Of a stretch of DNA of 64,000 nt, positions 1-42,630 are shown one piece after another. The notes below the pieces were generated by a model. The model had not been told where the DNA came from. It made no database searches and saw only the letters and a list, made by a program, of their open reading frames with translations. Positions within the stretch are counted from its first letter, which is position 1; every line of letters begins with the position of its first letter. The translations under genes and the position numbers were made by a program. Source of the stretch: a virus (Duplodnaviria > Caudoviricetes); IMG/VR virus record IMGVR_UViG_3300020049_008034, positions 1 through 64,000 of that record. One strand, given 5' to 3'.

Positions 1-37
1 CCGAGGCTGTGGAATTCTTTTTGGCAAATTGGACAGT

Positions 38-295
38 TCATAACGTAAGTTTATCTATTGCTTTACCAATCTCAACCGGATCAGGAACAGGGAGTTCTTC
101 ACCTCGTCTCCAGCGGTTGTAAGTCTTAAGGAGTTCTTTGGCTTTGTTTAGTTCGGCGAAATATTCGTCGCCCGGATGATCAGGAAGGAGGTTGTATTGT
201 TCCTCTAGCATGGACTCGTTAGGAAGCCCTCCGTAACACTCTTTGATGTAATCTTCAAGTGTGATGTATCGATTGACGTATGGGTCGTATTTCAT
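38..295 (-). CDS. Hypothetical phage protein (85 aa)
   Basis: ORF track; 4-bp overlap with the upstream gene. Confidence 0.7.
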   Translation of the reverse strand: MKYDPYVNRYITLEDYIKECYGGLPNESMLEEQYNLLPDHPGDEYFAELNKAKELLKTYNRWRRGEELPVPDPVEIGKAIDKLTL

Positions 296-731: not shown

Positions 732-1274
732 GGGTTTGGTGAAATATTGGGATGATTTTGTTTTGGGGTTATTTTTGGGTGTGTTTTGGAAGAATATTTG
801 GGAAAATGGGGTTTAAACTTACAATCGGCTTGTTTCAGCTCGGTAGGGGTGAAAATTATATTTGGTTTGGGGTGTTTTTGTGTCCAATTAAGAGGGTGTA
901 GGTTATTTTTATAGTTTGTCGATCTAGGGTGTGAGTAGATACATAGCAGGCCAGGGGTGCAAATCGCTGCGGGAAACGCGATCGCGAAGGCCGACGGGGG
1001 TGTAAAGCGATTGTGAAAGGGTAGGGGGTGTGTTTACTTATATGCACAAAACGTGCTCCAGAAGGCACTGAAAAAGTGATTTTAGTACACACGTTCTAAT
1101 TATGCTAAATGCCTCTATTGATAATCAATACGTTACGATCGTAAGCATAATGGTAAATTTGTTGTGACTACCTTAAGCTAGGTAAAACTAATTAGGTACT
1201 GCTTTTACGTGTATAGCCTATATTTTTGCATATTTATATGTTTTTATTGGTTTGCGGTCCTTTGGGGGGTATTA

Positions 1275-1484
1275 CTGAGGATTAGGTGTGTATGGCTGTC
1301 TGCCTAGACGACGACTAACCACTACGACCAATAAAGCCACTGTTAGCCACTGTACTATATTAAGCCCATTAAACTGTATAATTTCTGTATAAATCTGTAT
1401 AATGGCTGTATGTGGTCATTTGGGCGTGTTGCTGAGGATTGCGTGTGTTGTGCTTCCGCTGGAGTGTTAACTAGCCACTACGAC
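1275..1484. repeat. Duplicated non-coding unit plus phased CTGTAT repeats
   Basis: CTGAGGATT at 1275 and 1432; CCACTACGAC at 1319 and 1475; CTGTAT at 1374, 1385, 1395, 1406. Confidence 0.7.
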
Positions 1485-1651
1485 TAATGTGACCATAAAC
1501 CACTATCAAACCCTCTGACAATCGCGTGTACCGTTTCTCCTTGCCTATTATGCGCTACAATCTAACGTCAATAGGGTATTTTTGCGTTTGTACTTGTTTA
1601 TTTGGCTATCCTAGTTTACTTTTGTCTCATTGTTCATCTAAATTCAATGCA

Positions 1652-2053
1652 ATGAAAATCGTTAAACTTGTTGTAGTCTTTGAAAGCAGTCACCCAATAA
1701 CCATACGCAAAAAGGTAACGGCTGAATTTTGGGTTTATGAAAGAAAGTATAACGTCGAACTAGATAAAGACAGCGACGAAATAAAAGAAGCACTGAACAA
1801 GTGTTTCAACCTCTTTAAAAAGGAAGAGTGCAGAATTGATATTTACGTGGAGAACGAAGGGCAAATTATACTGGACTCCCAACAACGTTTTTTAATTGCT
1901 GGGCTTGATCTTAAGTTTAAGAAAGGTATTAAGAATGAATACTATCAATACTCTGACTTTGTTTTTTCTGATAAGAAGGAGTTTTTTAGTGCTGTTTCTC
2001 TTATTGGGCAATATGCAATTAACGTTTATCAGAATTCATTGCTTAGCGTTTAA
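1652..2053 (+). CDS. Hypothetical early protein
   Basis: ORF track; start moved to MKIVK. Confidence 0.65.
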   Translation: MKIVKLVVVFESSHPITIRKKVTAEFWVYERKYNVELDKDSDEIKEALNKCFNLFKKEECRIDIYVENEGQIILDSQQRFLIAGLDLKFKKGIKNEYYQYSDFVFSDKKEFFSAVSLIGQYAINVYQNSLLSV

Positions 2054-2099
2054 GTTCATCCGGGTTTCACTTAATTTTTAAACCTTTAAAACTCTTACC

Positions 2100-2375
2100 A
2101 TGCTTTACACCAAAATATTTCCCGCTAAAGTCAACGCCGCCGACGTTTTACCCGCTTATGACTGGGCTATTGCAAACCGTTCTAATGGAGTATTGCGGAC
2201 CGACGCACATTCAATGCTCAATTTAGATATGCTGCATTATTGGCTCAAGGTTGGGACTGGAGTTTTGATTCTTGATAAGTCTAAACCTTTAGCTGGTACT
2301 TATCTTATTCCTTTTCCACATGCTAAAGTAAAGCATTGGGTTAAGTCTGGAAAGCTTAAGATTGAAAGGATTTAA
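2100..2375 (+). CDS. Hypothetical early protein
   Basis: ORF track; motif follows the stop. Confidence 0.75.
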   Translation: MLYTKIFPAKVNAADVLPAYDWAIANRSNGVLRTDAHSMLNLDMLHYWLKVGTGVLILDKSKPLAGTYLIPFPHAKVKHWVKSGKLKIERI

Positions 2376-2390
2376 GTTCATCCGGGATTT

Positions 2391-2424
2391 TAATGGCCTG
2401 TAGATTTATTTCTACAGGCCATTA
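2391..2424 (+). terminator. Perfect 14-bp hairpin (terminator or processing stem)
   Basis: TAATGGCCTGTAGA-TTTATT-TCTACAGGCCATTA; no strong U tract. Confidence 0.5.
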
Positions 2425-2510
2425 TTCATTTAAGAACTTTATACGCAATTCTCAGCCCATTTAAACGGTGTGTAACGAAAATTTAGTTCAAATATACCTA
2501 CTTTGGTGTA

Positions 2511-2541
2511 TTGCGCACTGTATTTTATCTCCTTACCTTTG
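2511..2541 (+). promoter_or_regulatory. Bacteroidota-type promoter
   Basis: TTG (2511), N20, TACCTTTG (2534-2541). Confidence 0.7.
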
Positions 2542-2557
2542 TTGAAAATCAAACGAT

Positions 2558-2764
2558 ATGAAAAATCTAACCTTTGCTTTCTTGTTTATCCCTTTCTTAT
2601 CTTTCAGCCAAATGCCCAGTACTACGAAAGATAGTCTGGTTATTGGGACCGTTGTAAGGGATACTACTTTACAGGTGTTTACCTCAAAGACTGGCTCTAA
2701 GTTTTTGGTGTTGTGGTCTGAGAAGTCACAACGGTATTACAGGGTTTATTTGCCTAAAAAGTAG
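2558..2764 (+). CDS. Small secreted protein
   Basis: Signal-peptide-like N-terminus MKNLTFAFLFIPFLSFS-Q. Confidence 0.7.
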   Translation: MKNLTFAFLFIPFLSFSQMPSTTKDSLVIGTVVRDTTLQVFTSKTGSKFLVLWSEKSQRYYRVYLPKK

Positions 2765-2800
2765 TTCATCCGGGATTTTTTCACGCTAACAAACATTCAC

Positions 2801-2941
2801 ATGAGAACGTTTATCATTCAAATCTTTAATTCGCTGGGAAACTTGGTTTTTTCTGGCAAATGTAAAGCGGTATCATTCGATGATGCACGCGCAATGGCCG
2901 AACTTTCGGCCAAAAGTGGTGATGAAATAAAAATTTCTTAA
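2801..2941 (+). CDS. Small hypothetical protein (46 aa, below track cutoff)
   Basis: Manual translation MRTFIIQIFNSLGNLVFSG...DEIKIS; fills the gap between genes. Confidence 0.55.
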   Translation: MRTFIIQIFNSLGNLVFSGKCKAVSFDDARAMAELSAKSGDEIKIS

Positions 2942-2958
2942 CTCTTCAATTCAAAACA

Positions 2959-3288
2959 ATGATAACGCAAGAACGCGCTAAACAACTAGCTTTTGAATGG
3001 TTTGAAAATGACCATTTTAATCAATTTGCCGTAGACGGTGAATATAAGCCTGAATTTTGTCTCCGTTACCTTATGTCGATTGAATGGGCCATTATTGCAC
3101 CTGAAAGCGCTTTAAGACCGTACAACCACACAAAAAAGAACAGAAAGCAGTTAGAACAACTTGAGGCGTATTTTTCTAAGATTTGCCCTTATCCTTTTGA
3201 ATGGACTAAACATCCTCAATATGGATATCGTGTTCCGCAATTACTGGAGCATGTTGAAGGTGTTCATGGTTTGCGTTTACCTGTTTAA
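2959..3288 (+). CDS. Hypothetical early protein
   Basis: ORF track. Confidence 0.75.
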   Translation: MITQERAKQLAFEWFENDHFNQFAVDGEYKPEFCLRYLMSIEWAIIAPESALRPYNHTKKNRKQLEQLEAYFSKICPYPFEWTKHPQYGYRVPQLLEHVEGVHGLRLPV

Positions 3289-3325
3289 TTCATCCGGGAA
3301 TTTTTCAACCTTTCAATCTAATAAA

Positions 3326-3901
3326 ATGAGAACTGAACAGATTAATATCTATCAATTTTCAGAACTTTCTGAAAAAGCCAAACAAAACGCAATCGAAAAA
3401 CGTCGCTACTGGAATGTGAAACACAATTGGTGGAGCTTCATTTATGACCAGTTCAAAGAAGAACATCCACAATATGAAGATTGTGAAATTTCGTTTTCTG
3501 GTTTTTCTTCTCAAGGTGATGGAGCTAGTTTTACATTTAGGATCGACAGCGCGTATTTTGAAAAGTGGGTAAACGAATTGACTATTATTCCAGAATGGAA
3601 GAAAGCTATTTTAGTTCACTATACGCCACAATTTTACGGAAAGCGCAATAGTTTGCCATACGTACACAAAAGAAGCGTTACAATCGAATTCGACAGCGAA
3701 GAACACCATTACCCAAACATTGATGAGTTTAAAGAACAAATGTATGCTAACTTTTTGGCTTTTCTTCGCTCTGAATATTATACCCACTGCGATGAACTTT
3801 ACCGGACGCTTGAAGAGGAGTATGATTTTAGGACTTCTGATAAATACATAATTGAGAGGATGACAGATTGTGAGTTTTACGAGAATGGCGAAACTTATTA
3901 G
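3326..3901 (+). CDS. Conserved-looking phage early protein
   Basis: Start moved to MRTEQ; YQFSELSEKAKQNAIE N-terminus and acidic C-terminus. Confidence 0.75.
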   Translation: MRTEQINIYQFSELSEKAKQNAIEKRRYWNVKHNWWSFIYDQFKEEHPQYEDCEISFSGFSSQGDGASFTFRIDSAYFEKWVNELTIIPEWKKAILVHYTPQFYGKRNSLPYVHKRSVTIEFDSEEHHYPNIDEFKEQMYANFLAFLRSEYYTHCDELYRTLEEEYDFRTSDKYIIERMTDCEFYENGETY

Positions 3902-3922
3902 GGATTTGGGCCGTTTTGGCCC

Positions 3923-3975
3923 TTCCGTCGCGTTATGTGTGTAACGCCTGAAGAGTCGAAAACGACGAAACGGAA
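3923..3975 (+). ncRNA. Type III hammerhead ribozyme 1
   Basis: TTCCG-TC / GCGTTAT-GTGT-GTAACGC / CTGAAGA / GTCG-AAAA-CGAC / GAAA / CGGAA: full core and three stems; GUC cleavage after 3929. Confidence 0.93.
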
Positions 3976-3994
3976 AACTTTAAATTAACACAAC

Positions 3995-4159
3995 ATGACA
4001 CTTTTTGAACAATTTCATAAAAAAATAGCAGATTGTGCAACATTGCACGACCTTGAGCTAATAAAAGAAGAGGTTAAATCTGCTTTTGATGCTGACAGCG
4101 ACGAAAGGCTTGAACTTCTTGGGTTTGCTGGGATGGTGGAGGATTATTTAACATTCTAA
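3995..4159 (+). CDS. Small hypothetical protein (54 aa)
   Basis: Manual translation MTLFEQFHKKIADC...DYLTF; A-rich start context after the hammerhead. Confidence 0.6.
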   Translation: MTLFEQFHKKIADCATLHDLELIKEEVKSAFDADSDERLELLGFAGMVEDYLTF

Positions 4160-4170
4160 ATTTATCTAAC

Positions 4171-4428
4171 ATGGAATATTTACCAGACAACGCTTTTTGC
4201 ATTATCGACTCCAATCGTGGGATTTATATCCCTAGGGAATTTGCTAGGATTTGGGGTGAAGCATCCACAATGACTGCTGAACAAAGATTTATTCTTTCCG
4301 CCGGTCCTGATCACGTTGATTATTGGGACGTTTGGACCGAAATTGTGGACAATGTTGTTTTTGAGTTTGACGGTGAAAAATGTGTTTTGTGGGAGGACAG
4401 CGATTTATTCGCCGTTCCTGTAAATTAA
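4171..4428 (+). CDS. Hypothetical early protein
   Basis: ORF track. Confidence 0.75.
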   Translation: MEYLPDNAFCIIDSNRGIYIPREFARIWGEASTMTAEQRFILSAGPDHVDYWDVWTEIVDNVVFEFDGEKCVLWEDSDLFAVPVN

Positions 4429-4464
4429 TTCTTTTAGGGTATAGGAATTTAGTTTCCTTCTTTT

Positions 4465-4472
4465 TACCTTTG
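4465..4472 (+). promoter_or_regulatory. Possible -7 promoter element
   Basis: TACCTTTG; no clear TTG at -33; motif 5 nt downstream. Confidence 0.45.
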
Positions 4473-4526
4473 TATTGTTCATCCGGGCCATGTGCACGAT
4501 TTTTTTTCACACTTCAATCTATCCTT

Positions 4527-4889
4527 ATGAAAATCGAATCTTTTAACCCTGTTTTTGCAATAAACGGTAAAGCGCATAAAAAAGAAAAAGGCTATGCGGG
4601 TACTTACCTTATTGTTGACGCAAATTTAAATGTAAAATTGGATTTGCGCATTTACTGGACTGAAGCAAGGTGTTATGCTTGTGTTTGGTTCAATGGTGCA
4701 AGTGGTAGCGGTTATGCTGGTGGATGGGGTTACGAAAAAACCAGCGCTGCCGCTGAAGCCGCATTTCGTTGTGCGGGTCTTAAGATTAGCGGCTTGAGTG
4801 CCAGTGGAATGATTACAGAGGCTTTAGAATTGATCGCTGTTGAAATTCTGGGGCTTGATTCTTTCAAAGTTATACATACTCATCCTTAA
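4527..4889 (+). CDS. Hypothetical early protein
   Basis: Start moved to MKIES; contains SGSGYAGGWGYEKTSAA. Confidence 0.75.
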   Translation: MKIESFNPVFAINGKAHKKEKGYAGTYLIVDANLNVKLDLRIYWTEARCYACVWFNGASGSGYAGGWGYEKTSAAAEAAFRCAGLKISGLSASGMITEALELIAVEILGLDSFKVIHTHP

Positions 4890-4896
4890 TATTTTC

Positions 4897-4941
4897 AGCC
4901 GTGACGGTCTTAGTTAGCGTTCGATTCGCTAAACGGCTCAA
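4897..4941 (+). ncRNA. tRNA-like T-loop minihelix
   Basis: AGCCGT/ACGGCT stem stacked on TTAGCG-TTCGATT-CGCTAA (12 bp in total), ending in CAA followed by the motif. Confidence 0.6.
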
Positions 4942-4974
4942 TTCATCCGGGATTTTCCCACAAATTTTACAACT

Positions 4975-5346
4975 ATGTTACTCAAGGATATTTTCAAGCA
5001 AAAACCACAAAGGCCAGAAGTGGTAAAAAGGCCAATAATCGATGGTTATGGACTTGACCCTGATTTGTTTATAGAACATGCTGAAAAGCTTAAAAAGTAC
5101 CTTGATTATCAAAATAAAGCCTATGTTTTGTGGGCTGAATATGATAACAGTGTTTTAGTTTGGCTTGATTCTATGTTTAAACAAGTCGTTACCGATGTTT
5201 CATACCAATTCCCAGTGGATAAACGAGAAATTGCCCTACAGGCTGCCAAAAAACGTGTAGATATCGGTGATTTTGTCGACTACGATTTACAAGACTGGAT
5301 TGATTTTAGGGATGAACTAGAATTTCTTTCAAATCTTTTTTCATAA
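4975..5346 (+). CDS. Hypothetical early protein
   Basis: ORF track. Confidence 0.75.
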   Translation: MLLKDIFKQKPQRPEVVKRPIIDGYGLDPDLFIEHAEKLKKYLDYQNKAYVLWAEYDNSVLVWLDSMFKQVVTDVSYQFPVDKREIALQAAKKRVDIGDFVDYDLQDWIDFRDELEFLSNLFS

Positions 5347-5363
5347 CCAACAAACTTAAAAAA

Positions 5364-5825
5364 ATGATTACTATTCAAACAAAAGAATGGTTCGACAAGG
5401 TGAATGGAAACACCTATTTTTCCGCTGAAGTTCATCTGGGCAATGATTTAATTATGGTTCTGCCGTTCCAATACGGCTATAATGGCGCAAGGCAGGAGGT
5501 TGAAAATAGATTGGCCAAGCACTTTAGTAGTTGCGCCGAACGTTGGGAATTGCGATTGCGCAAAAATGGCATTGAAATCAGTGAGACTAAAAGTAAAGCG
5601 TTGAAGCGTGAACTTTCCAGGGAAAGCTTTGAAGATTTCACACCTTTCCTGAAAGATGAAAATCTGGCCCTTTATGCGGCGCATTCTATGCGCGAAGGTA
5701 TTCCGCTTAACCATCACACGATGGAAAACGTTTACATTGATTGGCTGACCAATGAAGGTGTTGGTATTACTTTTGCCAATGGTAGTAACGAACTTTATTC
5801 GTTTAATTCTTTCAATTGGTTTTAA
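5364..5825 (+). CDS. Hypothetical early protein
   Basis: ORF track; KEWFDKVNGNTYFSA...PFQYGY. Confidence 0.75.
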   Translation: MITIQTKEWFDKVNGNTYFSAEVHLGNDLIMVLPFQYGYNGARQEVENRLAKHFSSCAERWELRLRKNGIEISETKSKALKRELSRESFEDFTPFLKDENLALYAAHSMREGIPLNHHTMENVYIDWLTNEGVGITFANGSNELYSFNSFNWF

Positions 5826-5858
5826 TTCATCCGGGCTATGCCCACAAAACTTACGATA

Positions 5859-5990
5859 ATGGGAGGAATGACATTAGATTGGGTTTATTCGCCTTATGTG
5901 CCACCTGTAAAGATTGTAGCACCTAAACCAAAGCCTAAAAGCAAACATAATAAAGCCAGGGCGCTACGGTTTAAGGCTAAACATAGATAA
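5859..5990 (+). CDS. Small basic peptide (43 aa)
   Basis: Manual translation MGGMTLDWVYSPYVPPVKIVAPKPKPKSKHNKARALRFKAKHR; bounded by motif copies. Confidence 0.5.
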   Translation: MGGMTLDWVYSPYVPPVKIVAPKPKPKSKHNKARALRFKAKHR

Positions 5991-6016
5991 ACTCATCCGG
6001 GCCATGTGCGGTCCGG

Positions 6017-6068
6017 CCTGTCATGCCGTGTATTGCGGTGTCTGATGATTCGGAAACGATGAAACAGG
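6017..6068 (+). ncRNA. Type III hammerhead ribozyme 2
   Basis: CCTG-TC / ATGCCGT-GTATT-GCGGTGT / CTGATGA / T-TCG-GAAA-CGA-T / GAAA / CAGG; GUC cleavage after 6022; stem II has a U.U pair at its base. Confidence 0.85.
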
Positions 6069-6087
6069 GACGAGAAAAGTTAACAAA

Positions 6088-6405
6088 ATGGGTTACGCTG
6101 TATGGCATTCTCTGGAGATAAAAAACTCCACCGAAAAAGAAGTTATCATGGCTGATTTGCTTTCTGAAAATGAAAATGCAAGCTGTGCGCTAAATGAAGA
6201 TGGAACAGGCGAAGAATGGGAACGCTGGTATGGTATTGAAAAAGACATGCGCGAATTTTCCCTAAAATATCCTGGCGTACTATTTGAGTTTACGAATGAA
6301 GGCGAAGACGGCGACCGTTGGAAGGAATACTATATGGACGGCAAGTACCTTATGGCGTCTGCTATAATTACATACCCTGAGTTTGATGATAGAATGATGT
6401 CTTAG
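6088..6405 (+). CDS. Hypothetical early protein
   Basis: ORF track; FSLKYPGVLFEFTNEGEDG. Confidence 0.75.
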   Translation: MGYAVWHSLEIKNSTEKEVIMADLLSENENASCALNEDGTGEEWERWYGIEKDMREFSLKYPGVLFEFTNEGEDGDRWKEYYMDGKYLMASAIITYPEFDDRMMS

Positions 6406-6418
6406 ATCCATCCGGGCA

Positions 6419-6715
6419 ATGGCCCGCAAAACTAATAACATGACTTACTGGCAAGCATTCCACCAAATAATGCGCAAGGTCGACACAAGTCGCGGCGCTC
6501 CTATGGGCCGTCCAAATGTCGGTTCTCAACCAATCACTGTAACGCGCGACCCTAAATGCCGTGAATACAAATGTGATCAAACAAAAGTGTACCAACGTCG
6601 CGTTCCAATGATTGATGGCGCATATGACAGCGGTGGCGCTTATTGGGGTATTGGTAAACCGTTGTATGTGCGGTTTACTTTGGATTTGTCATACGTGGAG
6701 TTTTTCCGCGCTTAA
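6419..6715 (+). CDS. Conserved-looking phage protein (GAPMGR ... YDSGGAYWG)
   Basis: ORF track; motif-rich sequence. Confidence 0.75.
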   Translation: MARKTNNMTYWQAFHQIMRKVDTSRGAPMGRPNVGSQPITVTRDPKCREYKCDQTKVYQRRVPMIDGAYDSGGAYWGIGKPLYVRFTLDLSYVEFFRA

Positions 6716-6737
6716 TTCATCCGGGCAATAAATAGTT

Positions 6738-7046
6738 ATGAACAAGCAAATTGAACTCTTCAGGGCTGGTACGCCTAATGTTAGGGTATATATTCTACCT
6801 AAACAATGGGACGGTGTGACCGTTGTTTGGCCTTACAAGTCTGGTTATTCGTCTTTGACAAATGATGGGCAAATTTGTGAGCATTTTGTGGATACTGATT
6901 GCTATTCGTATGCAAATCCGGTTGACTCTAAAGGGTGTAAACACCTAGGCAAAAAAGCCAAATGGGAGGACTTGGACGAAAATGTGAAACAGTCTATTCT
7001 TTATCTATTCCCTTTAATTTGGGATGTTCATCCGGGTAATGTTTAG
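6738..7046 (+). CDS. Hypothetical early protein
   Basis: ORF track; motif lies in the last codons (HPG). Confidence 0.7.
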   Translation: MNKQIELFRAGTPNVRVYILPKQWDGVTVVWPYKSGYSSLTNDGQICEHFVDTDCYSYANPVDSKGCKHLGKKAKWEDLDENVKQSILYLFPLIWDVHPGNV

Positions 7047-7242
7047 AATAATGTACGACGGAGGCGATAAAGATTACTTTGTTGTCTCCGCAACCCATAC
7101 CGTAAATTTTGGCACTTATGAAGAAGCCAAGGTTTTTTACACGCTTGAGATGGCGCAATTGTACTATAAATCTTTCCCTGATCAATTTGTTGGGTCAAAA
7201 TTTGGCTGGCAAATTGTTTTTAATCAAGATTTATTTACATAA
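7039..7242 (+). CDS. Hypothetical early protein
   Basis: Start moved to ATG 7039, overlapping the upstream stop. Confidence 0.6.
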   Translation: MFRIMYDGGDKDYFVVSATHTVNFGTYEEAKVFYTLEMAQLYYKSFPDQFVGSKFGWQIVFNQDLFT

Positions 7243-7246
7243 AAGT

Positions 7247-7276
7247 TTGCAAGTCAGAATGTTATTTGTATATTTG
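7247..7276 (+). promoter_or_regulatory. Bacteroidota-type promoter abutting the motif
   Basis: TTG (7247), N19, TATATTTG (7269-7276), then TTCATCCGGG. Confidence 0.7.
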
Positions 7277-7310
7277 TTCATCCGGGCAATTGCTCGAAAA
7301 TTCAACAAAA

Positions 7311-7556
7311 ATGGTTGTTATAAACGATTTTAGCAAACAAATAGAATTGCTGCTTAATGGCAGCCCTGTTGGTGTGATTGACAACCTTATGCAACTCCAG
7401 GATATTAGAGTGCAGATAAGGAAAAATCAACTTTCTGGGTACGCAATCAAGCACAATGAAAATTTAATTCACATTAACAGCGACGGACATTTCCAGCCCG
7501 CTAAATTGGTCCCATTCTATAAGCAATGGGTGGATATGTGTTCTGAATTATTTTAA
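7311..7556 (+). CDS. Hypothetical early protein
   Basis: Start moved to MVVIN. Confidence 0.7.
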   Translation: MVVINDFSKQIELLLNGSPVGVIDNLMQLQDIRVQIRKNQLSGYAIKHNENLIHINSDGHFQPAKLVPFYKQWVDMCSELF

Positions 7557-7587
7557 TCATCCGGGCATTGCCCTAAATCTAAACAAA

Positions 7588-8154
7588 ATGTATATCTTCA
7601 TTAAACGAGACGAAGGGTGGTATGCCCTGGAGAAGTCGAAGATCACACGGCAATTATATGCTGAGTGTTTCGATTCGACTGGTCAGAAAATTGGTCACGA
7701 TGTAGCTGGGACTGTTTTGGAAATCCAAAGCGAGGTTGCCGCACATACGATTACCAAATACGCTCGTCAGGAATCAATCACCAATAAACGGTTTAAAATT
7801 GGTGATCAAATTTCCGCTACACCTGAAATGTCACCTTATTACGATGATCAGCTATTTTATTTCGCCTATGACCTGGACGGAGTTGACCGATTTGAGGAGG
7901 GCGTAATGGCTTATTCGTATCGTGGTTGGTCGAATTGGCATACACTGTTTTTTGATTTTGACAACCTTGATGGGTTTGTTGAGGAGGTTGAGCGCAATGA
8001 GAAGCTCATCCGGGCTTTACGTGGTGCTATTGGGGCTTATCGACAACACAATACACCTGATCGTTACGGTCGGTCATGGGAAGGGAAAAGATTTCGTGTG
8101 TCAACTAGCCTCATGGCTGACGCATGGTGGGATTTTAAAATCGAAGAGCTATGA
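7588..8154 (+). CDS. Hypothetical early protein
   Basis: ORF track. Confidence 0.75.
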   Translation: MYIFIKRDEGWYALEKSKITRQLYAECFDSTGQKIGHDVAGTVLEIQSEVAAHTITKYARQESITNKRFKIGDQISATPEMSPYYDDQLFYFAYDLDGVDRFEEGVMAYSYRGWSNWHTLFFDFDNLDGFVEEVERNEKLIRALRGAIGAYRQHNTPDRYGRSWEGKRFRVSTSLMADAWWDFKIEEL

Positions 8155-8293
8155 AGCTAACTCTAACAGTCGGCGCAATAGTCGCCGCCCTGGTCGCACA
8201 TGAGTGCTGGCCTATATCCTTAATGATAATCGGATTGTGTGTTAAGGTCGGGTATAACGATCTTAAGCAGTCTGGATGGTTTAAATCTAATTT

Positions 8294-8620
8294 ATGAAAA
8301 CTTTAATCTTTATTCTTTTTCCGTTCTTTTTGTCGGCTCAGGCCATCCGGGGCTTTGATGTTGAAATTCCTTGCCCTCAGTGCAAAACTGATTTGAATTT
8401 AGTCTTCCGGTCTACCGGAGGATTGGATTTAACCCTGGCTATTGGCGGAGGTCGGCAGTATGTGCAAATCTGCGATGAGCTTAAGCCAGCAGGGTTTAAG
8501 CTGTTGTCAAACGGTATCGAAATTTGTTTCGACGGGCGCAAAATCTTTTTTACGCAAAATGTTGCGTATGAAGGGATGAAACGTTATCTTTGTTCAACCT
8601 ATGGTGTTTTATCTCTATGA
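8294..8620 (+). CDS. Secreted protein with CxxC
   Basis: MKTLIFILFPFFLSA-Q signal-like N-terminus; CPQC. Confidence 0.7.
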   Translation: MKTLIFILFPFFLSAQAIRGFDVEIPCPQCKTDLNLVFRSTGGLDLTLAIGGGRQYVQICDELKPAGFKLLSNGIEICFDGRKIFFTQNVAYEGMKRYLCSTYGVLSL

Positions 8621-8763
8621 TCTGGAAAAAGGAAAACGGCGTGTGGGTTAGTGGGTTGTATAAAATCACTCCCATGCGCCACTTTTGTAAACTATTCTTT
8701 GATGAGAAATGGATTGGGAACTTTCAAACATTGGACGATGCGAAAGATTCTATTTCTGATTAG
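8617..8763 (+). pseudogene. Small ORF apparently broken by a 1-nt insertion
   Basis: MIWKKENGVW...KLFF stops at TGA; removing one T from TTCTTTTGAT continues as DEKWIGNFQTLDDAKDSISD. Confidence 0.35.
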
Positions 8764-8848
8764 CTTAATCGCGCTCTCATCCTGTGGCATCACTCGCCCG
8801 GATGGGTATAAGGCACACAAAAGCTGTGGGTATCATAAACCAAATTGA
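8738..8848 (+). CDS. Small lipoprotein (36 aa)
   Basis: MRKILFLISLIALSS-C lipobox-like N-terminus. Confidence 0.55.
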   Translation: MRKILFLISLIALSSCGITRPDGYKAHKSCGYHKPN

Positions 8849-8868
8849 TCATCATTAAATCTGAAATA

Positions 8869-9240
8869 ATGAACAAGAAGCTATTTAAGCGCTATAACAG
8901 CTATGACCGATACTGGGCAACTTTTGCTGTTGTTTCTGATGGAGAAATCACCCCTGATCCAGAATGGAAGGATGAAGAGGACGGGGTTTATCCTGAATTT
9001 ACTATTTACCAGTGCCACAATCCTTATGTGTGTGTCGAAGACTACATGGAAAAACAACGCCGACTAGATGAGTTGAGAGACAGGGTGTATGAACTGAAGA
9101 CTGAACAGGGCGTACTACTCGATTTGCTTAGATCTAAACTACCGTGCGATCAACCTATTTTGTTTGGCGAAGTTGTTGTTACGATGGACGAGGATGGGGT
9201 TATTTTATTTCAAAAAGCAATGTCATCCTCTGACTTGTGA
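8869..9240 (+). CDS. Hypothetical protein
   Basis: Start moved to MNKKL. Confidence 0.7.
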   Translation: MNKKLFKRYNSYDRYWATFAVVSDGEITPDPEWKDEEDGVYPEFTIYQCHNPYVCVEDYMEKQRRLDELRDRVYELKTEQGVLLDLLRSKLPCDQPILFGEVVVTMDEDGVILFQKAMSSSDL

Positions 9241-9599
9241 AATACCTACTCCTACTCCTGCCCTTCCCTCTCTTCTCGCAGATCACTCACTTGAAAACCG
9301 TTACCGCTCAGGTAATGGGATTCGGGGACAGGGAGCTTATTGCGATTACCTTTTATCGGGGAGATAAGATTGGATTTGATCTGGCCACCCATGAAGGGAA
9401 TTTGATTGGGAAGTGCGAGGTTATGTCTTTACGTCGCTCTCAGCGCACTATTGATAGCTCGGCGGTTCATAGGATCATCCGGGCTTTTAATGAGCGTGAG
9501 GAGCGTCGTAGAGGCACTGAAAGAGGGCAGGCGGTGGTGATTGGCATTTCTTTACTGTCAGCTAAGGCTTTAGTAGACTCAAAATTTGATTGGAAATGA
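9237..9599 (+). CDS. Secreted protein
   Basis: MKYLLLLLPFPLFS-Q signal-like N-terminus. Confidence 0.7.
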   Translation: MKYLLLLLPFPLFSQITHLKTVTAQVMGFGDRELIAITFYRGDKIGFDLATHEGNLIGKCEVMSLRRSQRTIDSSAVHRIIRAFNEREERRRGTERGQAVVIGISLLSAKALVDSKFDWK

Positions 9600-9736
9600 A
9601 GTATGAGATAAGATACCTAACTTTAGAGTTTAAAACAGAGTCAGTGATAGTTAGGGCTGCTAACGAACGTCATGCTGAGGAAGCATTCCGTTCTCGTTAC
9701 ATGTATTTCGACATTCTTTCAATCACAAAACTATGA
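9596..9736 (+). CDS. Small hypothetical protein (46 aa)
   Basis: Manual translation MKYEIRYLTLEF...SITKL; ATGA overlaps at both ends. Confidence 0.6.
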   Translation: MKYEIRYLTLEFKTESVIVRAANERHAEEAFRSRYMYFDILSITKL

Positions 9737-10173
9737 TCCTATTCATAATTTTTCACTTAACTTACATCTCTCGCTACACTCCCCTTGCTATGTCTGAACA
9801 GGCAAAGTTTGGAATTCCGTGGGAGATTACGATGGGTCAGGCTATACTGGAAGGGGCTAGGGGAGAGAGTGACATCGCTAAGGTGTGTAATAATCACTTT
9901 GGGATGAAATGTCACGAGCGGAACTGTTCATCCGGGCATTGTACGCCGATGCTAGACAACTTAGAAGGCCGTGTAAGCCGTTTCCGGAGGTTTAATACGG
10001 TTTGGGAGTCTTATAGGGCTCACAGTGTAAAGCTGTCGTCAGAGCCACGCTACGCCCCTCTACGGGGATTAGATTGGAGAAGCTACGCCTACGGACTGGA
10101 GAGATGCGGTTGGTCTACTGACCCTGAGTATGCAGAGAAACTCATTCGTGTCATTGAAACAAATTTGAAATGA
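9733..10173 (+). CDS. GH73 glucosaminidase / FlgJ-like peptidoglycan hydrolase
   Basis: GIPWEITMGQAILEG..SDIA..NNHFGMK...FRRF..VWES...WSTDPEYAEKL matches the GH73 pattern. Confidence 0.85.
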   Translation: MILFIIFHLTYISRYTPLAMSEQAKFGIPWEITMGQAILEGARGESDIAKVCNNHFGMKCHERNCSSGHCTPMLDNLEGRVSRFRRFNTVWESYRAHSVKLSSEPRYAPLRGLDWRSYAYGLERCGWSTDPEYAEKLIRVIETNLK

Positions 10174-10496
10174 GAGTAGTAAATGTAAAAACAAAGTATG
10201 GGGAGTGCAGGATTTACACTGACGCCCCGGATGAAAAGCTTGAAGGGTATACCTTTAGCGACCAGCTTGAGAGGGGGCTTAAAAAACAGGGTTACAGTGC
10301 TAGGGTTCTTAAAAGGTATTGGTTTTCAGAAAAACAAATGAATCACCCCCCTATGGTATGGACCCACTCGAATGGCACACATGAAACTATAAGGACAAAA
10401 GTTCACTACATTAACGGAAAGCCATACACGATGATCGGAGATGAATGTCTGTTGGATGATGCCGTATTAGTTCACGATGATGAAACAAATTTATGA
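10170..10496 (+). CDS. Hypothetical protein
   Basis: ORF track; coupled overlap. Confidence 0.7.
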   Translation: MRVVNVKTKYGECRIYTDAPDEKLEGYTFSDQLERGLKKQGYSARVLKRYWFSEKQMNHPPMVWTHSNGTHETIRTKVHYINGKPYTMIGDECLLDDAVLVHDDETNL

Positions 10497-10717
10497 AAGC
10501 ATTTTATGTGTTGTGGGATGGGAGCCATTATCTTTACAATGATCCTGTTCTATTGGAGCGACATGGTGTGGCTTCGTACACTGAATACATGGGGGAAGCT
10601 ATGCAATTCGATACCCTACCTCAAGCATTGGATTTCGCATCCGGGCTTTCGCTGGATGTTTTGAAAGTTGAGATCAGTTACGCTTATAGTCGGGATTTGT
10701 TCACTAATAAATTTTAA
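10493..10717 (+). CDS. Hypothetical protein
   Basis: ORF track. Confidence 0.7.
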   Translation: MKAFYVLWDGSHYLYNDPVLLERHGVASYTEYMGEAMQFDTLPQALDFASGLSLDVLKVEISYAYSRDLFTNKF

Positions 10718-10720
10718 ATC

Positions 10721-11077
10721 ATGTATCAACAAATTGAAGTCTTATTGGCTATGATTGGGACTTATCCTGAGAAGCCTAAGAAGCCCGTGTTGCTTACTGG
10801 AGCAAACTCGGATGACATGCGAAAGTATGCTGATGCTTTTGATGTCTTTCAAGCCAAGTTTGCAGAGTTTGAGGCAAATAGGCTGGAGTATTACCAGCGA
10901 AAAGGCGAGGTTGAGCACGAGATCACTGATCTGATCAACCGGGAATCAGGCTTGCTTAATATTCCTGAGCAGTACCGAGCTAAAATCTGGTCTATTGCAT
11001 GGGAAGAAGGGCATAGTGCTGGGTATCACGAGGTATATCAATGGCTGTGTCGATTGGTTGAAATTTTTGAAAACTAA
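10721..11077 (+). CDS. Hypothetical protein
   Basis: ORF track; AWEEGHSAGYHEV. Confidence 0.75.
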   Translation: MYQQIEVLLAMIGTYPEKPKKPVLLTGANSDDMRKYADAFDVFQAKFAEFEANRLEYYQRKGEVEHEITDLINRESGLLNIPEQYRAKIWSIAWEEGHSAGYHEVYQWLCRLVEIFEN

Positions 11078-11082
11078 AAACT

Positions 11083-11271
11083 ATGTACTACATCAAGTGG
11101 AGTGAATTTTATGTGCGAATGCTTTTGGGTTACGTGTCGGTACACAAAGAGCCTTTAGCTTTTCATGGCGACCTTGAGGACGCTCAGGAAGAAGCGGTTA
11201 AGATTGCTAAATTTTTAGGCCAGACCGTCAACGTCTTTAAGGTTGAGTTAGTCTGCGAGGTTGAACCGTAG
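11083..11271 (+). CDS. Hypothetical protein
   Basis: ORF track. Confidence 0.65.
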   Translation: MYYIKWSEFYVRMLLGYVSVHKEPLAFHGDLEDAQEEAVKIAKFLGQTVNVFKVELVCEVEP

Positions 11272-11302
11272 TTGCAGGAGTGAAAAGTTTTTATTATCTT
11301 TG
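11272..11302 (+). promoter_or_regulatory. Bacteroidota-type promoter
   Basis: TTG (11272), N20, TATCTTTG (11295-11302). Confidence 0.75.
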
Positions 11303-11393
11303 CAGTGCCGAAATTAAGTGGCTAGTAAATTGGTTTTTATCAATAGTTGATTTAACTTTGTATTTATTTCGCATAAAGGTAAAAACCAATTTC

Positions 11394-11422
11394 AGGGGCA
11401 CTCATTTTGAGGCCCCTTTTTT
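11394..11422 (+). terminator. Intrinsic terminator in the leader of the wHTH gene
   Basis: AGGGGC...GCCCCT followed by a T run. Confidence 0.6.
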
Positions 11423-11443
11423 AATTTAAACGCCTTATGTGAA

Positions 11444-12067
11444 ATGAATGAAAAGTATAAAATCATCCACGAGTCACACGCTCGATTCTTATCTGACTCC
11501 GAGTACAGAGTCCTCCTCTCCATTAATATGTTCCAGAATGTCGGCAAAGAGCTCGTATCTGTAGATATGATAGCTAAGGATTGTCTTATGGGAGAAAAGA
11601 CCGTAGACAGGAGCTTGGCTGCGCTGAAAGAACGCTCCTTGATTGCTTGGGAACGAACACTTAAAGTCAAAGAGGGATATAATCAATGGTGGAATGTGTA
11701 TGATATAAACTTTGAACTTAAACTACCGAAGCCCGGATGGAATTCAAGCTTAAGGTTGGTAGACACAAGGTGCTTTGAAGGCGCTCCGGCTTGGGCCTGT
11801 TGGTTTACTGCCGTGTGTCATTCCGCTAGGGGGTTTTCAGATGATCCGCAAGTCCGAAGCATTGTCCGAATGGCGGAGTATTGCGGATTAGATAGACGCA
11901 CAGTGAGCAAGTATAAAGACATCTTAACCGCGCATAAAAGAGGGCTATACATTATGGACAACAACTTTCGCCTGAACGGGTGCATGCTGTTTTATAAGAA
12001 GGATAATGTGGTCAAAATGACCGATATTTGCCCAATCCCCGAGAATAAAAAATGGACAAAGCTTTAA
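11444..12067 (+). CDS. Tandem winged-HTH protein, probable replication initiator
   Basis: Two wHTH-like segments (LSDSEYRVLL...IAKDCLMGEKTVDRSLAALKERSLI; MAEYCGLDRRTVSKY); followed directly by iterons. Confidence 0.65.
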   Translation: MNEKYKIIHESHARFLSDSEYRVLLSINMFQNVGKELVSVDMIAKDCLMGEKTVDRSLAALKERSLIAWERTLKVKEGYNQWWNVYDINFELKLPKPGWNSSLRLVDTRCFEGAPAWACWFTAVCHSARGFSDDPQVRSIVRMAEYCGLDRRTVSKYKDILTAHKRGLYIMDNNFRLNGCMLFYKKDNVVKMTDICPIPENKKWTKL

Positions 12068-12546: not shown

Positions 12547-12759
12547 ATGACTGACAAGCAATTTCAAAAACTAATCGATAGGTGTGTCAAGGCAGCTAAA
12601 TTGCACCACGCGCTCCTACAAGATGCTGAGGCAGAATACGAGCGTCGGTTTGGGTTCAACCCGTCTGACGTAGATGATGACTTTTGGATTGATTCTTTAC
12701 ATCACGGAGTTGAGGTTACGGTTGCGCAAATTACCGAGAACGCTGAGTTTCATGGTTAA
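12547..12759 (+). CDS. Hypothetical protein
   Basis: ORF track; stop followed by the variant TTCATCTGGG. Confidence 0.75.
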   Translation: MTDKQFQKLIDRCVKAAKLHHALLQDAEAEYERRFGFNPSDVDDDFWIDSLHHGVEVTVAQITENAEFHG

Positions 12760-14678: not shown

Positions 14679-14849
14679 TGTTCGTTATATTGAAGCGCAC
14701 AAGCTTAAACCAAAATCCACGACCATGTAGTTTTTAAAAATAAACTGAAGTACTCTAGGAGTTAGTAGGTTTACAGACTGACCAATAAGGGGAAAAAACG
14801 ATTTTTATTATCATCCGGGCTTTAAATACGATTAGACCCCGGATGAACC

Positions 14850-14952
14850 AAGAGATCAGATAGCGAGCTGGCCCGCATGGGTGATCAATAAACGGTGCAA
14901 ACAAGAGTCTAACTCCCGAAGCTGTAAGCGATTTGCCTGATCTCTTTTTTTT
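14850..14952 (+). ncRNA. Structured RNA A, family unknown
   Basis: Closed by the perfect 10-bp pair AAGAGATCAG/CTGATCTCTT, followed by a T run. Confidence 0.5.
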
Positions 14953-15018
14953 ACGACTCTGGAGCAGAAGGAGTCGCCCGGATGAATACCCTCTAAGCTT
15001 TTGTGGCGGCGAGGTGAC

Positions 15019-15090
15019 TTTGCAGTAGTTTAGTGGCGAAAATACTCTGCGTGTAGCGGGGCGACGTCGGTTCGAATCCGGCCTGTAAAG
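15019..15090 (+). tRNA. Non-canonical tRNA, nominal anticodon TGT (Thr) with G33
   Basis: TTTGCAG/CTGTAAA acceptor, GTTT/AAAT D stem, CTCTG-CGTGTAG-CGGGG anticodon arm, GTCGG-TTCGAAT-CCGGC T arm, followed by G-CAA. Confidence 0.7.
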
Positions 15091-15095
15091 CAAAC

Positions 15096-15181
15096 TTGAT
15101 AGGTAGAGGGCAGATGGCTTAGCCCGACCGCTACGTGAAAGTCGTAACGGAAACTTGCGGGTTCGAATCCCGTCTATCGAG
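15096..15181 (+). tRNA. tRNA-like RNA with atypical anticodon arm
   Basis: TTGATAG/CTATCGA acceptor, GGGC/GCCC D stem, GCGGG-TTCGAAT-CCCGT T arm; 8-bp arm CCG-C-TACG-[TGAAAGT]-CGTA-A-CGG. Confidence 0.55.
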
Positions 15182-15275
15182 CGCAGTCGACAACGCCTGT
15201 TTAGCGTCCTCTTGCGCGAAAACAGTAACCTAAAACGCCAATGCGCGTAAAGAGAGTGACTCCGATACAATCGGA
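15182..15275 (+). ncRNA. Structured RNA C (possible pseudoknot plus hairpin)
   Basis: CTCTTGCGCG/CGCGTAAAGAG stem; loop AAACAG complementary to upstream CTGTTT; TCCGAT-ACA-ATCGGA hairpin. Confidence 0.4.
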
Positions 15276-15284
15276 TCATCCGGG

Positions 15285-15377
15285 CGGCTAAAGCAAGCTC
15301 AGTAAAAGCCTTGCAAGGGGAGGATGCAGTACTCGGTGCTGTGTAGGGTTCGACGCCCTCCCTAGCTTAGCTTAGAG
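15285..15377 (+). ncRNA. Degenerate tRNA-like RNA D
   Basis: AGGG-TTCGACG-CCCT T arm, GCT-CAGTAAA-AGC D-like arm, 7-bp variable-like arm GCAGTAC/GTGCTGT, weak acceptor stem. Confidence 0.4.
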
Positions 15378-15390
15378 CCCGGATGAACAC

Positions 15391-15464
15391 AGCGGAGTAG
15401 CGCAGTTGGTTAGCGCGGGAGGCTCATAACCTCTAGGTCGTCGGTTCAAATCCGGCCTCCGCAA
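15391..15464 (+). tRNA. tRNA-Met (CAT), initiator-like 1:72 mismatch
   Basis: AGCGGAG/CTCCGCA acceptor, GCGC/GCGC D stem, GGAGG-CTCATAA-CCTCT, GTCGG-TTCAAAT-CCGGC; ends A-CAA with no encoded CCA. Confidence 0.92.
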
Positions 15465-15477
15465 CAATTCATCCGGG

Positions 15478-15539
15478 CGGTTAAAGAAAGTTCTGGAACG
15501 CCGAATCAGGAATAAGGTGACGGTATCCCACCTCCTGAG
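15478..15539 (+). ncRNA. Structured RNA E
   Basis: TCAGG-(AATA)-AGGTG / CACCT-CCTGA bulged stem, closed by inverted motif copies. Confidence 0.4.
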
Positions 15540-15580
15540 CCCGGATGAAAAAAACATTTTGTTTATTCAAAAATTGTTTT

Positions 15581-15701: not shown

Positions 15702-16703
15702 ATGAAAAAGAAAGTTCAATTCAAAGGCCAAGACCTAGAACTTGGCATCGGCGAAAGCCTGTGGGTCAACATGAATGACCTCGAAAAAGTATCTAGCATC
15801 AAAGTGCTTACCTATCTTCAAACACCCAGGGTTTTATCTTTGGTTGACAGAATGGAGCCAAAGCCACTAAAAGTAGATGACAGGGTGATTTGGTTCCCCG
15901 AGAAACTGGCATTGGATTATGCAAAAGCAACAGGTGATCACAGCGCTCTCAGGGGACTGATTTTAGAGCACAAACCAATTAATCCGATTATTGAAAGTAA
16001 AGACGGCAAACTCTTGGTCAGGTCTACCGACGTAGCTAACGAGTTCGTAAAGGATCACGACAATGTTCTTAGGGACATTAGAACAATGGATTGTAGTCGA
16101 GAATTCACTTCCCTCAATTTTGAGGTCAGTACATACGTTGACAGTCAAGGAGTTACAAAGCCGTGCTACTTGATGACAAGAGATGGGTTTTCGTTCTTAG
16201 TTATGGGTTTCACCGGAAAGATGGCAGCTAGATTCAAGGAGGCGTACATCAATGCGTTTAATCGCATGGAGCACAAGTTAAGAAACAGGGCAATCGCCTT
16301 GCCCTCAAACTACATTGAAGCGCTTAAGGCTCTAGTTGTTTCAGAAGAAGCCCGGATGATCGCAGAAACCCAAGCGGAAGAGAACCAAGAAAAAGCAGAG
16401 ATAGTTGATCTGATTGTAGAAACTGGCGACAACTACACTATGCAGCAAGCGGCAAATGTTCTAGGGAGCGGCAGGAAAGACTTTTTCACTTGGCTTAGAG
16501 CAAATAACTATCTCCAGTCAAACAACGAACCATACCAAAAGTACATCCGCCAAAGCCCATTTTTCGTCGTTAAGGAAAGACCCAAAGATGGGCACGTTTA
16601 CCATACGCCATTCGTAACACCCAGAGGACTGGCGTATTTTGCTAAAAAGTTCAGTAAAATAAATAAATCTTCTAAAACCCTTGTACTTTTCAATCCTAAT
16701 TAA
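15702..16703 (+). CDS. KilA-N / Rha / ANT(KilA-C) three-domain antirepressor-type protein
   Basis: WVNMNDL..YLQTP..WFPEKLALDYAK; STDVANEFVKDHDNVLRDI..YLMTRDGFSFLVMGFTG..FKEAYINAFNRME; QAANVLGSGRKDFFTWLR..TPFVTPRGL. Confidence 0.85.
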   Translation: MKKKVQFKGQDLELGIGESLWVNMNDLEKVSSIKVLTYLQTPRVLSLVDRMEPKPLKVDDRVIWFPEKLALDYAKATGDHSALRGLILEHKPINPIIESKDGKLLVRSTDVANEFVKDHDNVLRDIRTMDCSREFTSLNFEVSTYVDSQGVTKPCYLMTRDGFSFLVMGFTGKMAARFKEAYINAFNRMEHKLRNRAIALPSNYIEALKALVVSEEARMIAETQAEENQEKAEIVDLIVETGDNYTMQQAANVLGSGRKDFFTWLRANNYLQSNNEPYQKYIRQSPFFVVKERPKDGHVYHTPFVTPRGLAYFAKKFSKINKSSKTLVLFNPN

Positions 16704-23402: not shown

Positions 23403-23626
23403 TGGGAGTCAAGTATCATCTTTTATCTGAAAAAGCCAAGGTATATAAAAAGCTACCTAAAAATGCTACTGAACCAGTTCTTGAGACAGAAGAAACAATC
23501 GAGTACCATGTTTTCCCGTGGTACTATATCGAGCGCAAAGAAGCTGTTAACAAGTGTTCCTTTTGCGGCAAACCCAAATACAACCCCTGCATCCATCAGT
23601 CACAAGTAAAATACTGTAAGCGATGA
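23402..23626 (+). CDS. Small protein with Cys-rich C-terminus
   Basis: CSFCGK...C. Confidence 0.65.
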   Translation: MGVKYHLLSEKAKVYKKLPKNATEPVLETEETIEYHVFPWYYIERKEAVNKCSFCGKPKYNPCIHQSQVKYCKR

Positions 23627-42568: not shown

Positions 42569-42630
42569 ACCATAAAGATACAAAAAATAATTTAAATAAA
42601 CAAACCTTTTGTTTAAATATAGCATTCTAG

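Follow-up and report, generated by a model that had tools for sequence, protein, structure and literature searches.

An oriented short word at early gene junctions and throughout the coding sequence of an uncultured wastewater phage

The window analyzed here covers positions 1-64,000 of a 77,548-bp IMG/VR virus record (IMGVR_UViG_3300020049_008034; 43% G+C) from an uncultured wastewater phage. In this phage the stop codons of nearly all early genes are directly followed by a short word, TTCATCCGGG. Genes run rightward from ~1.6 to 26.4 kb and leftward from 26.4 kb to the end of the record. The rightward block holds, in order, the small ORFan early genes, an island of tRNAs and noncoding RNAs (14.7-15.6 kb), Rha-ANT, DnaB, DnaG and an integrase-family gene (a tyrosine recombinase, 23623-24504). 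The leftward block encodes a SNF2-type helicase, an exonuclease, a 1972-aa virion protein, TnpB, TerL, a GroEL-like protein and lysins. No Shine-Dalgarno sequences precede the start codons, and host-type promoters are marked by TAnnTTTG boxes between genes, one of them with perfect TTTG-N19 spacing. From these two features, together with DUF6242 and a crAss_MUZ_C neighbor in a distant relative, we infer that the host belongs to the Bacteroidota. The sole indication that the clade is kin to crAss-like phages is a weak crAss_MUZ_C match in the relative L015. The record is probably a near-complete circle, since related contigs bridge its right end to the early array, the lysin/GroEL block continuing directly into that array; the CheckV figure of 48% looks too low.

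Between 2055 and 7565 there are 12 exact copies of the 9-mer TCATCCGGG and one variant, CCATCCGGG at 6408, all on the + strand, and the word is present at 13 of the 17 junctions of the gene model used here. The gap between the stop codon and (T)TCATCCGGG is 0 nt after 2764, 3288, 5825, 6715 and 7556, 1 nt after 2053 and 2375, and 2 nt after 5990 and 6405 (the variant). This bears out the original prediction, made from the letters of the DNA, that the word directly follows each of these stops and always lies on the sense strand. A copy that it had placed inside the last codons of gene 6738-7046 was found at 7027-7036, the variant that it had noted after the stop at 12759 is TCATCTGGG at 12761, and the copies at 4480 and 5994 do share 16 nt, CATCCGGGCCATGTGC. 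Copies at 4479, 4943 and 7278 sit farther off, 35-53 nt past a stop. At most junctions 12-40 nt separate the word from the ATG, without a promoter. Host-type promoters of the early array are located at ~1577/1617, 2534, 4465 and 7269. Host-type (TAnnTTTG) -7 boxes, from which start sites were predicted, precede three copies (4478, 7277 and 12521) by 0-11 nt, and the placement of these copies is operator-like. Individual features are collected in Table 1.

Table 1. Junction elements of the early array and two further word-bearing features of the window.
Feature	Position	Strand	Context
Word TTCATCCGGG	2055..2064	+	1 nt past stop 2053; 35 nt before ATG 2100
Word	2377..2386	+	1 nt past stop 2375; then terminator 2391-2424 with 14-bp stem, the one strong terminator in the array
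Word	2765..2774	+	0 nt past stop 2764; then T-run (GGGATTTTTTCAC) and ATG 2801
Word	3289..3298	+	0 nt past stop 3288; then T-run and ATG 3326
Junction without the word	3908..3976	+	Hairpin GGGCC-GTTTT-GGCCC, then probable type III hammerhead 3922-3976
-7 box and word	4465..4487	+	Host-type -7 box TACCTTTG; word 4478-4487, 5 nt downstream
Minihelix and word	4897..4951	+	tRNA-like minihelix 4897-4938, CAA, word 4942-4951, hairpin GGGA-TTT-TCCC
Word and hairpin GGGC-TAT-GCCC	5826..5845	+	0 nt past stop 5825; left end of cassette 5836-5992
Word, 7-bp hairpin and hammerhead-like core	5992..6073	+	CCGGGCC/GGTCCGG with one G.U pair; CUGAUGA..GAAAC
Variant word CCATCCGGG and hairpin CGGGC-AATG-GCCCG	6407..6426	+	2 nt past stop 6405
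Word	6716..6725	+	0 nt past stop 6715; 12 nt before ATG 6738
Word in last codons (H-P-G; ..DVHPGNV*) of gene 6738-7046	7027..7036	+	Next gene 7051-7242
Perfect Bacteroidota-type promoter (TTTG-N19-TATATTTG)	7246..7298	+	Abuts word 7277-7286; then hairpin CGGGC-AATT-GCTCG
Word and hairpin GGGC-ATT-GCCC	7556..7574	+	0 nt past stop 7556; then leader of conserved 188-aa gene
In-frame sense copy (..L-I-R-A..) in 188-aa gene	8006..8014	+	Same codons kept in five relatives
Inverted word pair, 11-bp stem around tRNA-Met	15377..15478	+	Fold z -4.0; outside the early span

The word is not specific to junctions. The 9-mer occurs in 49 exact copies in the window, compared to 0.41 expected, and the core CATCCGGG (fuller form TTCATCCGGGC(TT)) is found 81 times genome-wide, 55 times on the + strand and 26 times on the - strand, making it the commonest 7-mer and 8-mer of the 77.5-kb genome. 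About 65 of the 81 copies are within open reading frames (ORFs), with every frame represented, and the junction copies are an ordered intergenic subset of this genome-wide signal. A single one-mismatch variant, CAACCGGG, is enriched (18 further copies genome-wide, ~2 expected; no other single change is), and given this variant the word may be better written as CAWCCGGG.

Amino-acid contexts able to encode the word were counted and compared to the expectation from codon usage. In 51 middle and late genes, 32 of 43 antisense contexts carry the word (1.6 expected), as do 11 of 52 sense contexts (0.9 expected). Early genes carry it in 9 of 13 sense contexts (0.26 expected) and in 2 of 3 antisense contexts. 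The contexts are thus nearly saturated at synonymous sites, and selection therefore acts on the word as DNA, whichever way it points. The preferred orientation differs between gene classes, early copies being mostly sense and middle/late copies mostly antisense; the three intergenic late copies are antisense too. Spacing is regular, at about one copy per gene, in the early region only (coefficient of variation 0.56 vs 0.94 for random placement, P<0.0005), and looks random elsewhere.

Several general causes of such a word were considered and rejected. The 10-mer TCATCCGGGC reaches at most ~60 copies per genome in 401 sampled Bacteroidota genomes (a sample that is not exhaustive for the host), compared to 30 copies in this 77.5-kb phage; within that sample the word is no host-wide feature. 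In the one skewed genome (G382) the copies are dispersed and do not represent a prophage. Neither restriction nor a VSP-type cause accounts for the word: outside it, CCGG is not avoided (0.89 of expectation), and deamination neighbors are not specially depleted. Replication polarity fails as well, in that GC skew tracks gene orientation, with a minimum at ~1 kb and a maximum at ~26 kb, and mismatches the points at which the word switches strand (~15 and 26.4 kb). A literature search with both strands of the 8-mer returned no paper containing the word in the library covered.

Relatives were traced by their TerL homologues and are metagenomic contigs with the same word. A contig whose TerL is 62% identical has 13 copies in 14.4 kb, one at 65% has 9 in 13 kb, and one at 45% has 7 in 22 kb, all antisense. 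Compared to the 62-65% relatives, about half of the in-gene positions are shared and about half have turned over. Five related early arrays (L032 and L038-L041) repeat the arrangement of stop codon, 0-1 nt and TTCATCCGGG on the sense strand, and the in-frame copy in the conserved 188-aa gene occupies the same codon positions in all six phages. The promoter block at 7246-7298 is 94% identical in L032. Other searches were less productive: megablast of positions 2000-12000 against 50,697 phage records gave no match, a TerL-based scan of IMG/VR gave no relative, a two-word pattern scan of IMG/VR gave nothing beyond higher-GC contigs with chance matches or weak enrichment, and an exact 25-mer scan of JGI metagenomes gave two short contigs only. 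Weaker enrichment is present in two higher-GC IMG/VR phage contigs, L026 and L031 (6 copies in ~9 kb each).

L039 has a second, leftward early array (785-4383) in which the word is sense on the - strand and the cassettes and leaders resemble those of rightward arrays elsewhere; this is probably a recent inversion of part of an array. The arrays of relatives also include genes for a MYG1-type exonuclease and an RLIG1-like RNA ligase (L032 3556-4326 and 6008-6574; L041 12113-12874) that are not in the window. These are RNA-end-processing enzymes adjoining ribozyme-bearing junctions.

Comparison with relatives also supports the view that the word marks cassette boundaries: entire cassettes are present in one phage and missing from another, and the breakpoints lie within the word or next to it. 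The stretch 5836-5992 is exactly one word-to-word unit (leader, 50-aa ORF and stop codon), and it is missing from L032, L039 and contigs of two wastewater studies. The wastewater contigs join 5836/5842 to 5993, and another joins 6729 to 7570, both positions being 4-5 nt past a word. (Two of the wastewater runs are labeled 'RNA-Seq'; they consist of contigs, probably of DNA, and so carry no information on RNA ends.) Gene 7051-7242, right after a word, is absent from L032. Over the six arrays, 15.5% of homology-block ends fall at most 5 nt from a word as compared to 2.6% for random positions, an approximately six-fold excess, with the caveat that breakpoints at gene borders are expected in any case. 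For some cassette indels (4967 to 5363 and 6069 to 6435), the breakpoint is free of the word. The original prediction had offered short homologies for gene-cassette shuffling as one of two roles for the motif, and the gains and losses seen in relatives agree with it.

Within the junctions, the word is the invariant part, and what comes after it differs. One continuation is a 4-7-bp hairpin whose 5' arm is formed by the GGG(C) of the word and whose loop is, for example, UUCG, and then an A-rich leader; another is a T-run and then CAC(C)TTT; a third is a hairpin plus a hammerhead. Perfect hairpins using the GGG (stem of at least 4 bp) are formed by 23 of 60 intergenic copies (38%), compared to 19 of 157 coding copies and 7% of shuffles. 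Most of these stems are 4-5 bp long, with energies of -6 to -9 kcal/mol, and 62% of the intergenic copies are without a perfect hairpin. The base following the word covaries with its partner (C:G 20, A:T 2, T:A 2), and single mismatches in the hairpins are mostly G.T (15 of 26 involving G); together, these observations modestly favor folding of the sense RNA. Four small hairpins named in the original prediction fold as it described, at -6 to -8.9 kcal/mol. At some copies in relatives the structure is a full intrinsic terminator, such as TCCGGGC-CTTGT-GCCCGGA-T6 in L032; in the window, only 2391-2424 is of this kind.

The element at 3922-3976 is a full-length match to the type III hammerhead ribozyme (RF00008), a three-stem fold with the core CUGANGA, GAAA and GUH. 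Its core is intact, its score of 41.5 bits (E 3e-6) is below the Rfam gathering score of 48.5, and homologous copies in relatives score 30-41 bits. The original prediction had placed a hammerhead instead of the motif at the junction at 3901. A probable hammerhead and the absence of the word from this junction hold, and the reading of the two as alternatives does not: in relatives, hammerheads lie ~29 nt past a word copy and its hairpin, so word and hammerhead stack in one junction. The proposal of interchangeable boundary elements is therefore not supported. The hammerhead-like core within 5992-6073 gave no Rfam report at E<=1. The word-hairpin-hammerhead block that includes it, 5992-6078, is 97.7% identical in L032, while the neighboring genes are 65-72% identical. 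Near-identical blocks of word, 7-bp hairpin and hammerhead-like core are present in four phage contigs (the window, 5992-6078; L032, 1779-1864; L039, 8632-8720; and L036), and their flanking genes differ or are only 65-72% identical.

The minihelix at 4897-4938 has a 12-bp coaxial helix, a 7-nt T-loop-like UUCGAUU and an 11-nt bulge on the 5' strand (-17.8 kcal/mol, z -1.8). The stop codon at 4889 and the word at 4942 flank it, and L032 shows 94% conservation of its 5' part; ARAGORN gives no tRNA call here. Elements of an RNA-processing type, hammerheads and a tRNA-like minihelix, are thus present at the junctions, as had been predicted. Further along, seven word copies of alternating orientation occur within 740 bp (14811-15549) and bracket two tRNAs and other structured RNAs. 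One of these tRNAs, tRNA-Met (15391-15464), is enclosed by an 11-bp stem of word and anti-word, and the strand preference of the word switches here.

How these observations are best combined is a matter of interpretation. The explanation preferred here, held tentatively, is that this is a clade-specific DNA word read by a putative factor, which serves early genes as a polar operator or boundary site, has been co-opted in RNA hairpins and acts as a crossover point. The word is under selection at the DNA level, and a sequence-specific factor, probably one that the phage encodes, would most likely read it in double-stranded form. In the early arrays, where the word is sense, present about once per gene and found straight after a stop codon or at predicted host-type promoter start sites, it would most likely be a stoperator-like polar operator or boundary site, and a DNA-level roadblock of this kind would permit gene-by-gene control of an array transcribed by the host. 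Small RNA hairpins or attenuators may have taken over the GC-rich 3' half (CCGGGC) for their 5' arm, and the word adjoins hammerheads and a tRNA-like minihelix that would process the polycistronic RNA. Identical copies of 10-16 nt would also provide crossover points for gain, loss and swap of early ORFan cassettes. Distribution, register, orientation bias, saturation at synonymous sites, conservation, enrichment of hairpins and breakpoints are observed; the reader, the roadblock on DNA and effects on RNA are inferences. A pure mRNA signal is insufficient because of the saturated in-gene copies, many of them antisense, and a pure DNA word with no junction role is insufficient because of the one-per-gene spacing, the stop register and the class-specific orientation.

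The closest parallel is with the stoperators of cluster A mycobacteriophages (L5 gp71, TipsytheTRex repressor), which are established as polar, asymmetric, genome-wide sites (PMC9283540). The word shares with them a short, asymmetric, phage-specific form, more than 20 copies, positions in short intergenic gaps and on promoters, and an orientation tied to transcription; an asymmetric site is present at 13 of 17 early junctions, with three copies at predicted promoter start sites. It differs in being 8-10 nt long rather than 13, about three times denser and mostly genic, and in that many copies extend into RNA-type hairpins. Several observations weigh against the preferred explanation. Stoperator phages keep one orientation relative to transcription in all operons, whereas here the orientation flips between early and late genes. 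Pfam and PHROG scans of ~50 proteins gave no family match to a reader or repressor, including a cognate monomeric repressor with helix-turn-helix (HTH) plus stoperator domain. Late-gene spacing is random-like, so the late copies could be the product of some weaker, generic pressure and have no role in transcription. Finally, a DNA roadblock gives no reason for the tight stop register, the hairpins or the inverted pairs enclosing tRNA-Met, all of which point to RNA or single-stranded DNA.

A 360-aa protein encoded at 58475-59557 (- strand) has several HTH domains, a LAGLIDADG-like part and a match to a PHROG 'endonuclease' family (E 3e-39). Its gene overlaps the start of TerL and has the same place in the relatives L010 and L011. 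This protein could be a site-specific DNA binder that has become domesticated, and it is a candidate for the reader of the word or for a substitute of the small terminase. Other candidates for the reader are Rha-ANT (15702-16703), an HTH_36 protein (11444-12067) and the conserved 188-aa early protein (7588-8154).

The junction modules also resemble the promoter-early stem-loop (PeSL) cassettes of the T4-type phages RB49 and phi1, 50-100-nt composites organized about a complete sigma-70 promoter (Arbiol et al. 2010, PMC2839356). Both are modules that recur in the gaps between early ORFan genes of hyperplastic regions, begin at the upstream stop codon, have GC stem-loops and serve as crossover points for modular shuffling, and recombination between copies has led to gene gain, loss or replacement in relatives here as well. 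The word differs from PeSL cassettes in that only 3 of 13 junctions have a host-type promoter, TAnnTTTG -7 boxes precede three word copies only (4478, 7277 and 12521), and the shared part is a strict 8-10-mer that also fills coding sequence. Because most junctions lack a PeSL promoter and the orientation rule differs from that of stoperators, the word belongs to neither family.

The REP/BIME elements of enterobacteria are palindromic, 20-40 nt long and strictly extragenic. Like them, the word is repeated right after stop codons within operons, with hairpins that may stabilize or attenuate the upstream message, but it is non-palindromic and ~80% of its copies are genic. Overall, the word is akin to repeats known from intergenic boundaries, with the unusual addition of a genome-wide component that is biased in orientation, and the original prediction as a whole is partly supported.

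That prediction had also proposed that junction elements cut or stabilize the early transcript gene by gene, and a reading in terms of RNA alone is possible, if doubtful. Here UUCAUCCGGG and its small hairpin in the early polycistronic RNA would be a site for a sequence-specific RNase or RNA-binding protein, or a weak attenuator. Together with the hammerheads and tRNA-like elements, it would fix where the upstream message stops and where the next one begins. Use of the sense strand, the tight stop register in six arrays, the enrichment of hairpins at intergenic copies with their covariation and G.U bias, and the full intrinsic terminators at some copies in relatives all fit this reading, as do the hammerheads directly after word and hairpin, the minihelix just before the word at 4942 and the word/anti-word stems around tRNA-Met. 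A parallel is found in the tRNA punctuation and t-elements of organelle transcripts, where structured junction RNAs direct the cutting of polycistronic RNA. As with such punctuation and with the hammerheads of phage DNA, junctions of the array hold a hammerhead, a hammerhead-like core and a tRNA-like minihelix; the word itself, however, is neither ribozyme nor tRNA-like and accompanies such elements rather than replacing them. An mRNA signal leaves unexplained why ~65 of 81 copies are genic and the late ones mostly antisense, yet saturated at synonymous sites, and the same copies count against the original idea of an RNA signal specific to junctions. Nor do the short stems and the majority of intergenic copies without a perfect hairpin favor it. 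Sense copies in late mRNAs number 11, 13-fold over expectation, which indicates that a sense word is not harmful to a message. The analogy drawn with the RNase III sites of T7 is not supported either. Sites of that type are long, irregular double-stranded hairpins of ~20 bp between genes, and the junction stems are only 4-7 bp.

Alternatively, the word could have only a genome-wide function in DNA, as a self-marker for packaging, in Chi-like protection from nucleases or as a sponge for a host protein, with the short early spacers being the cheapest place for it. This is unlikely. A strict 8-mer that occurs at ~1 per kb on either strand, fills nearly every context able to encode it, is randomly spaced in late genes and is conserved clade-wide with turnover of positions, is what such a function would give. 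However, a word free to sit at any point of the spacer would not be expected to show one-per-gene spacing and a 0-1-nt register in six arrays, the orientation is class-specific even within coding sequence, and no single polarity fits GC skew or contig ends. Chi, uptake sequences and KOPS are comparable polar words (a strict 8-mer at ~1 per kb, found within coding sequence in every frame and favoring one strand), but they are words of host chromosomes. The absence of a comparable density from the sampled genomes of the host phylum counts against a host word of the Chi or uptake type, and the polarity of the phage word follows gene class and not replication.

It is also conceivable, though we consider it quite unlikely, that the word is an orientation code for temporal class. 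Either one polar reader, or pairing of early-RNA UUCAUCCGGG with late-mRNA CCCGGAUGAA, would treat early genes (word in sense) and middle/late genes (word in antisense) oppositely, and the same word would also seed hairpins, tRNA processing stems and cassette exchange. If this were true, gene timing would be written into coding sequence genome-wide.

An integron-like system, in which the word with or without its hairpin is the core site at which the phage tyrosine recombinase inserts and excises early ORFan cassettes, appears highly improbable. The array does consist of promoter-less small ORFs, each trailed by the same oriented site with folded sites adjoining it, indels span exactly one word-to-word unit, and an integrase-family gene is present. 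However, sixty-odd copies inside essential genes would invite lethal rearrangement, and the indels lacking a word at the breakpoint do not fit. Integron attC sites follow each cassette ORF and have imperfect inverted cores (R''-L''...L'-R') over 57-141 bp; no such paired cores were found here, where the only shared part is a single word of 8-10 nt with optional hairpins of 4-7 bp. Homologous exchange between 10-16-nt repeats accounts for the same data.

Least probable of all is that the word, which does stand in the sense orientation 12-40 nt upstream of most early starts about once per gene, is a short promoter or start site (GGG starts) giving one transcript per early gene from a phage-encoded or phage-modified RNA polymerase. 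The array is already supplied with promoters of host type, of which three adjoin the word, no RNA polymerase signature (DFDxD or DxDxD) was found in the near-complete genome, late antisense copies would drive antisense RNA, and early transcripts of phi14:2, the one crAss-like phage so studied, have no common upstream motif (bioRxiv 10.1101/2020.03.07.982082).

Should the word prove to be a site of polar control or a boundary, it would be a compact switch for a host-transcribed early array in an environmental, probably Bacteroidota-infecting clade, as well as a clear case of a regulatory word overriding synonymous codon choice across a whole phage genome. The relatives show exchange of early ORFan cassettes at a 10-nt joint, which is useful for understanding and engineering hyperplastic phage regions. 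The word is also a lead for spotting members of the clade in metagenomes, although the weaker enrichment in L026 and L031 has to be kept in mind.

Some features outside the early array were also noted. The 1972-aa virion protein (33200-39118, - strand) has an internal ParB N-terminal-like domain at residues ~770-855; no solved relative was found by sequence in the PDB, and no RNA polymerase motif was found in it. An IS605-type TnpB (41378-42625, - strand; OrfB_IS605, Cas12f1-like TNB and HTH) lies inside the virion-gene block without TnpA. It was uninformative as a marker of the host, its closest genomic homologues being scattered across many phyla. An exact 121-bp direct repeat is present at window positions 1-121 and at 76117-76237 of G000, in paralogous genes of the WDGH region.

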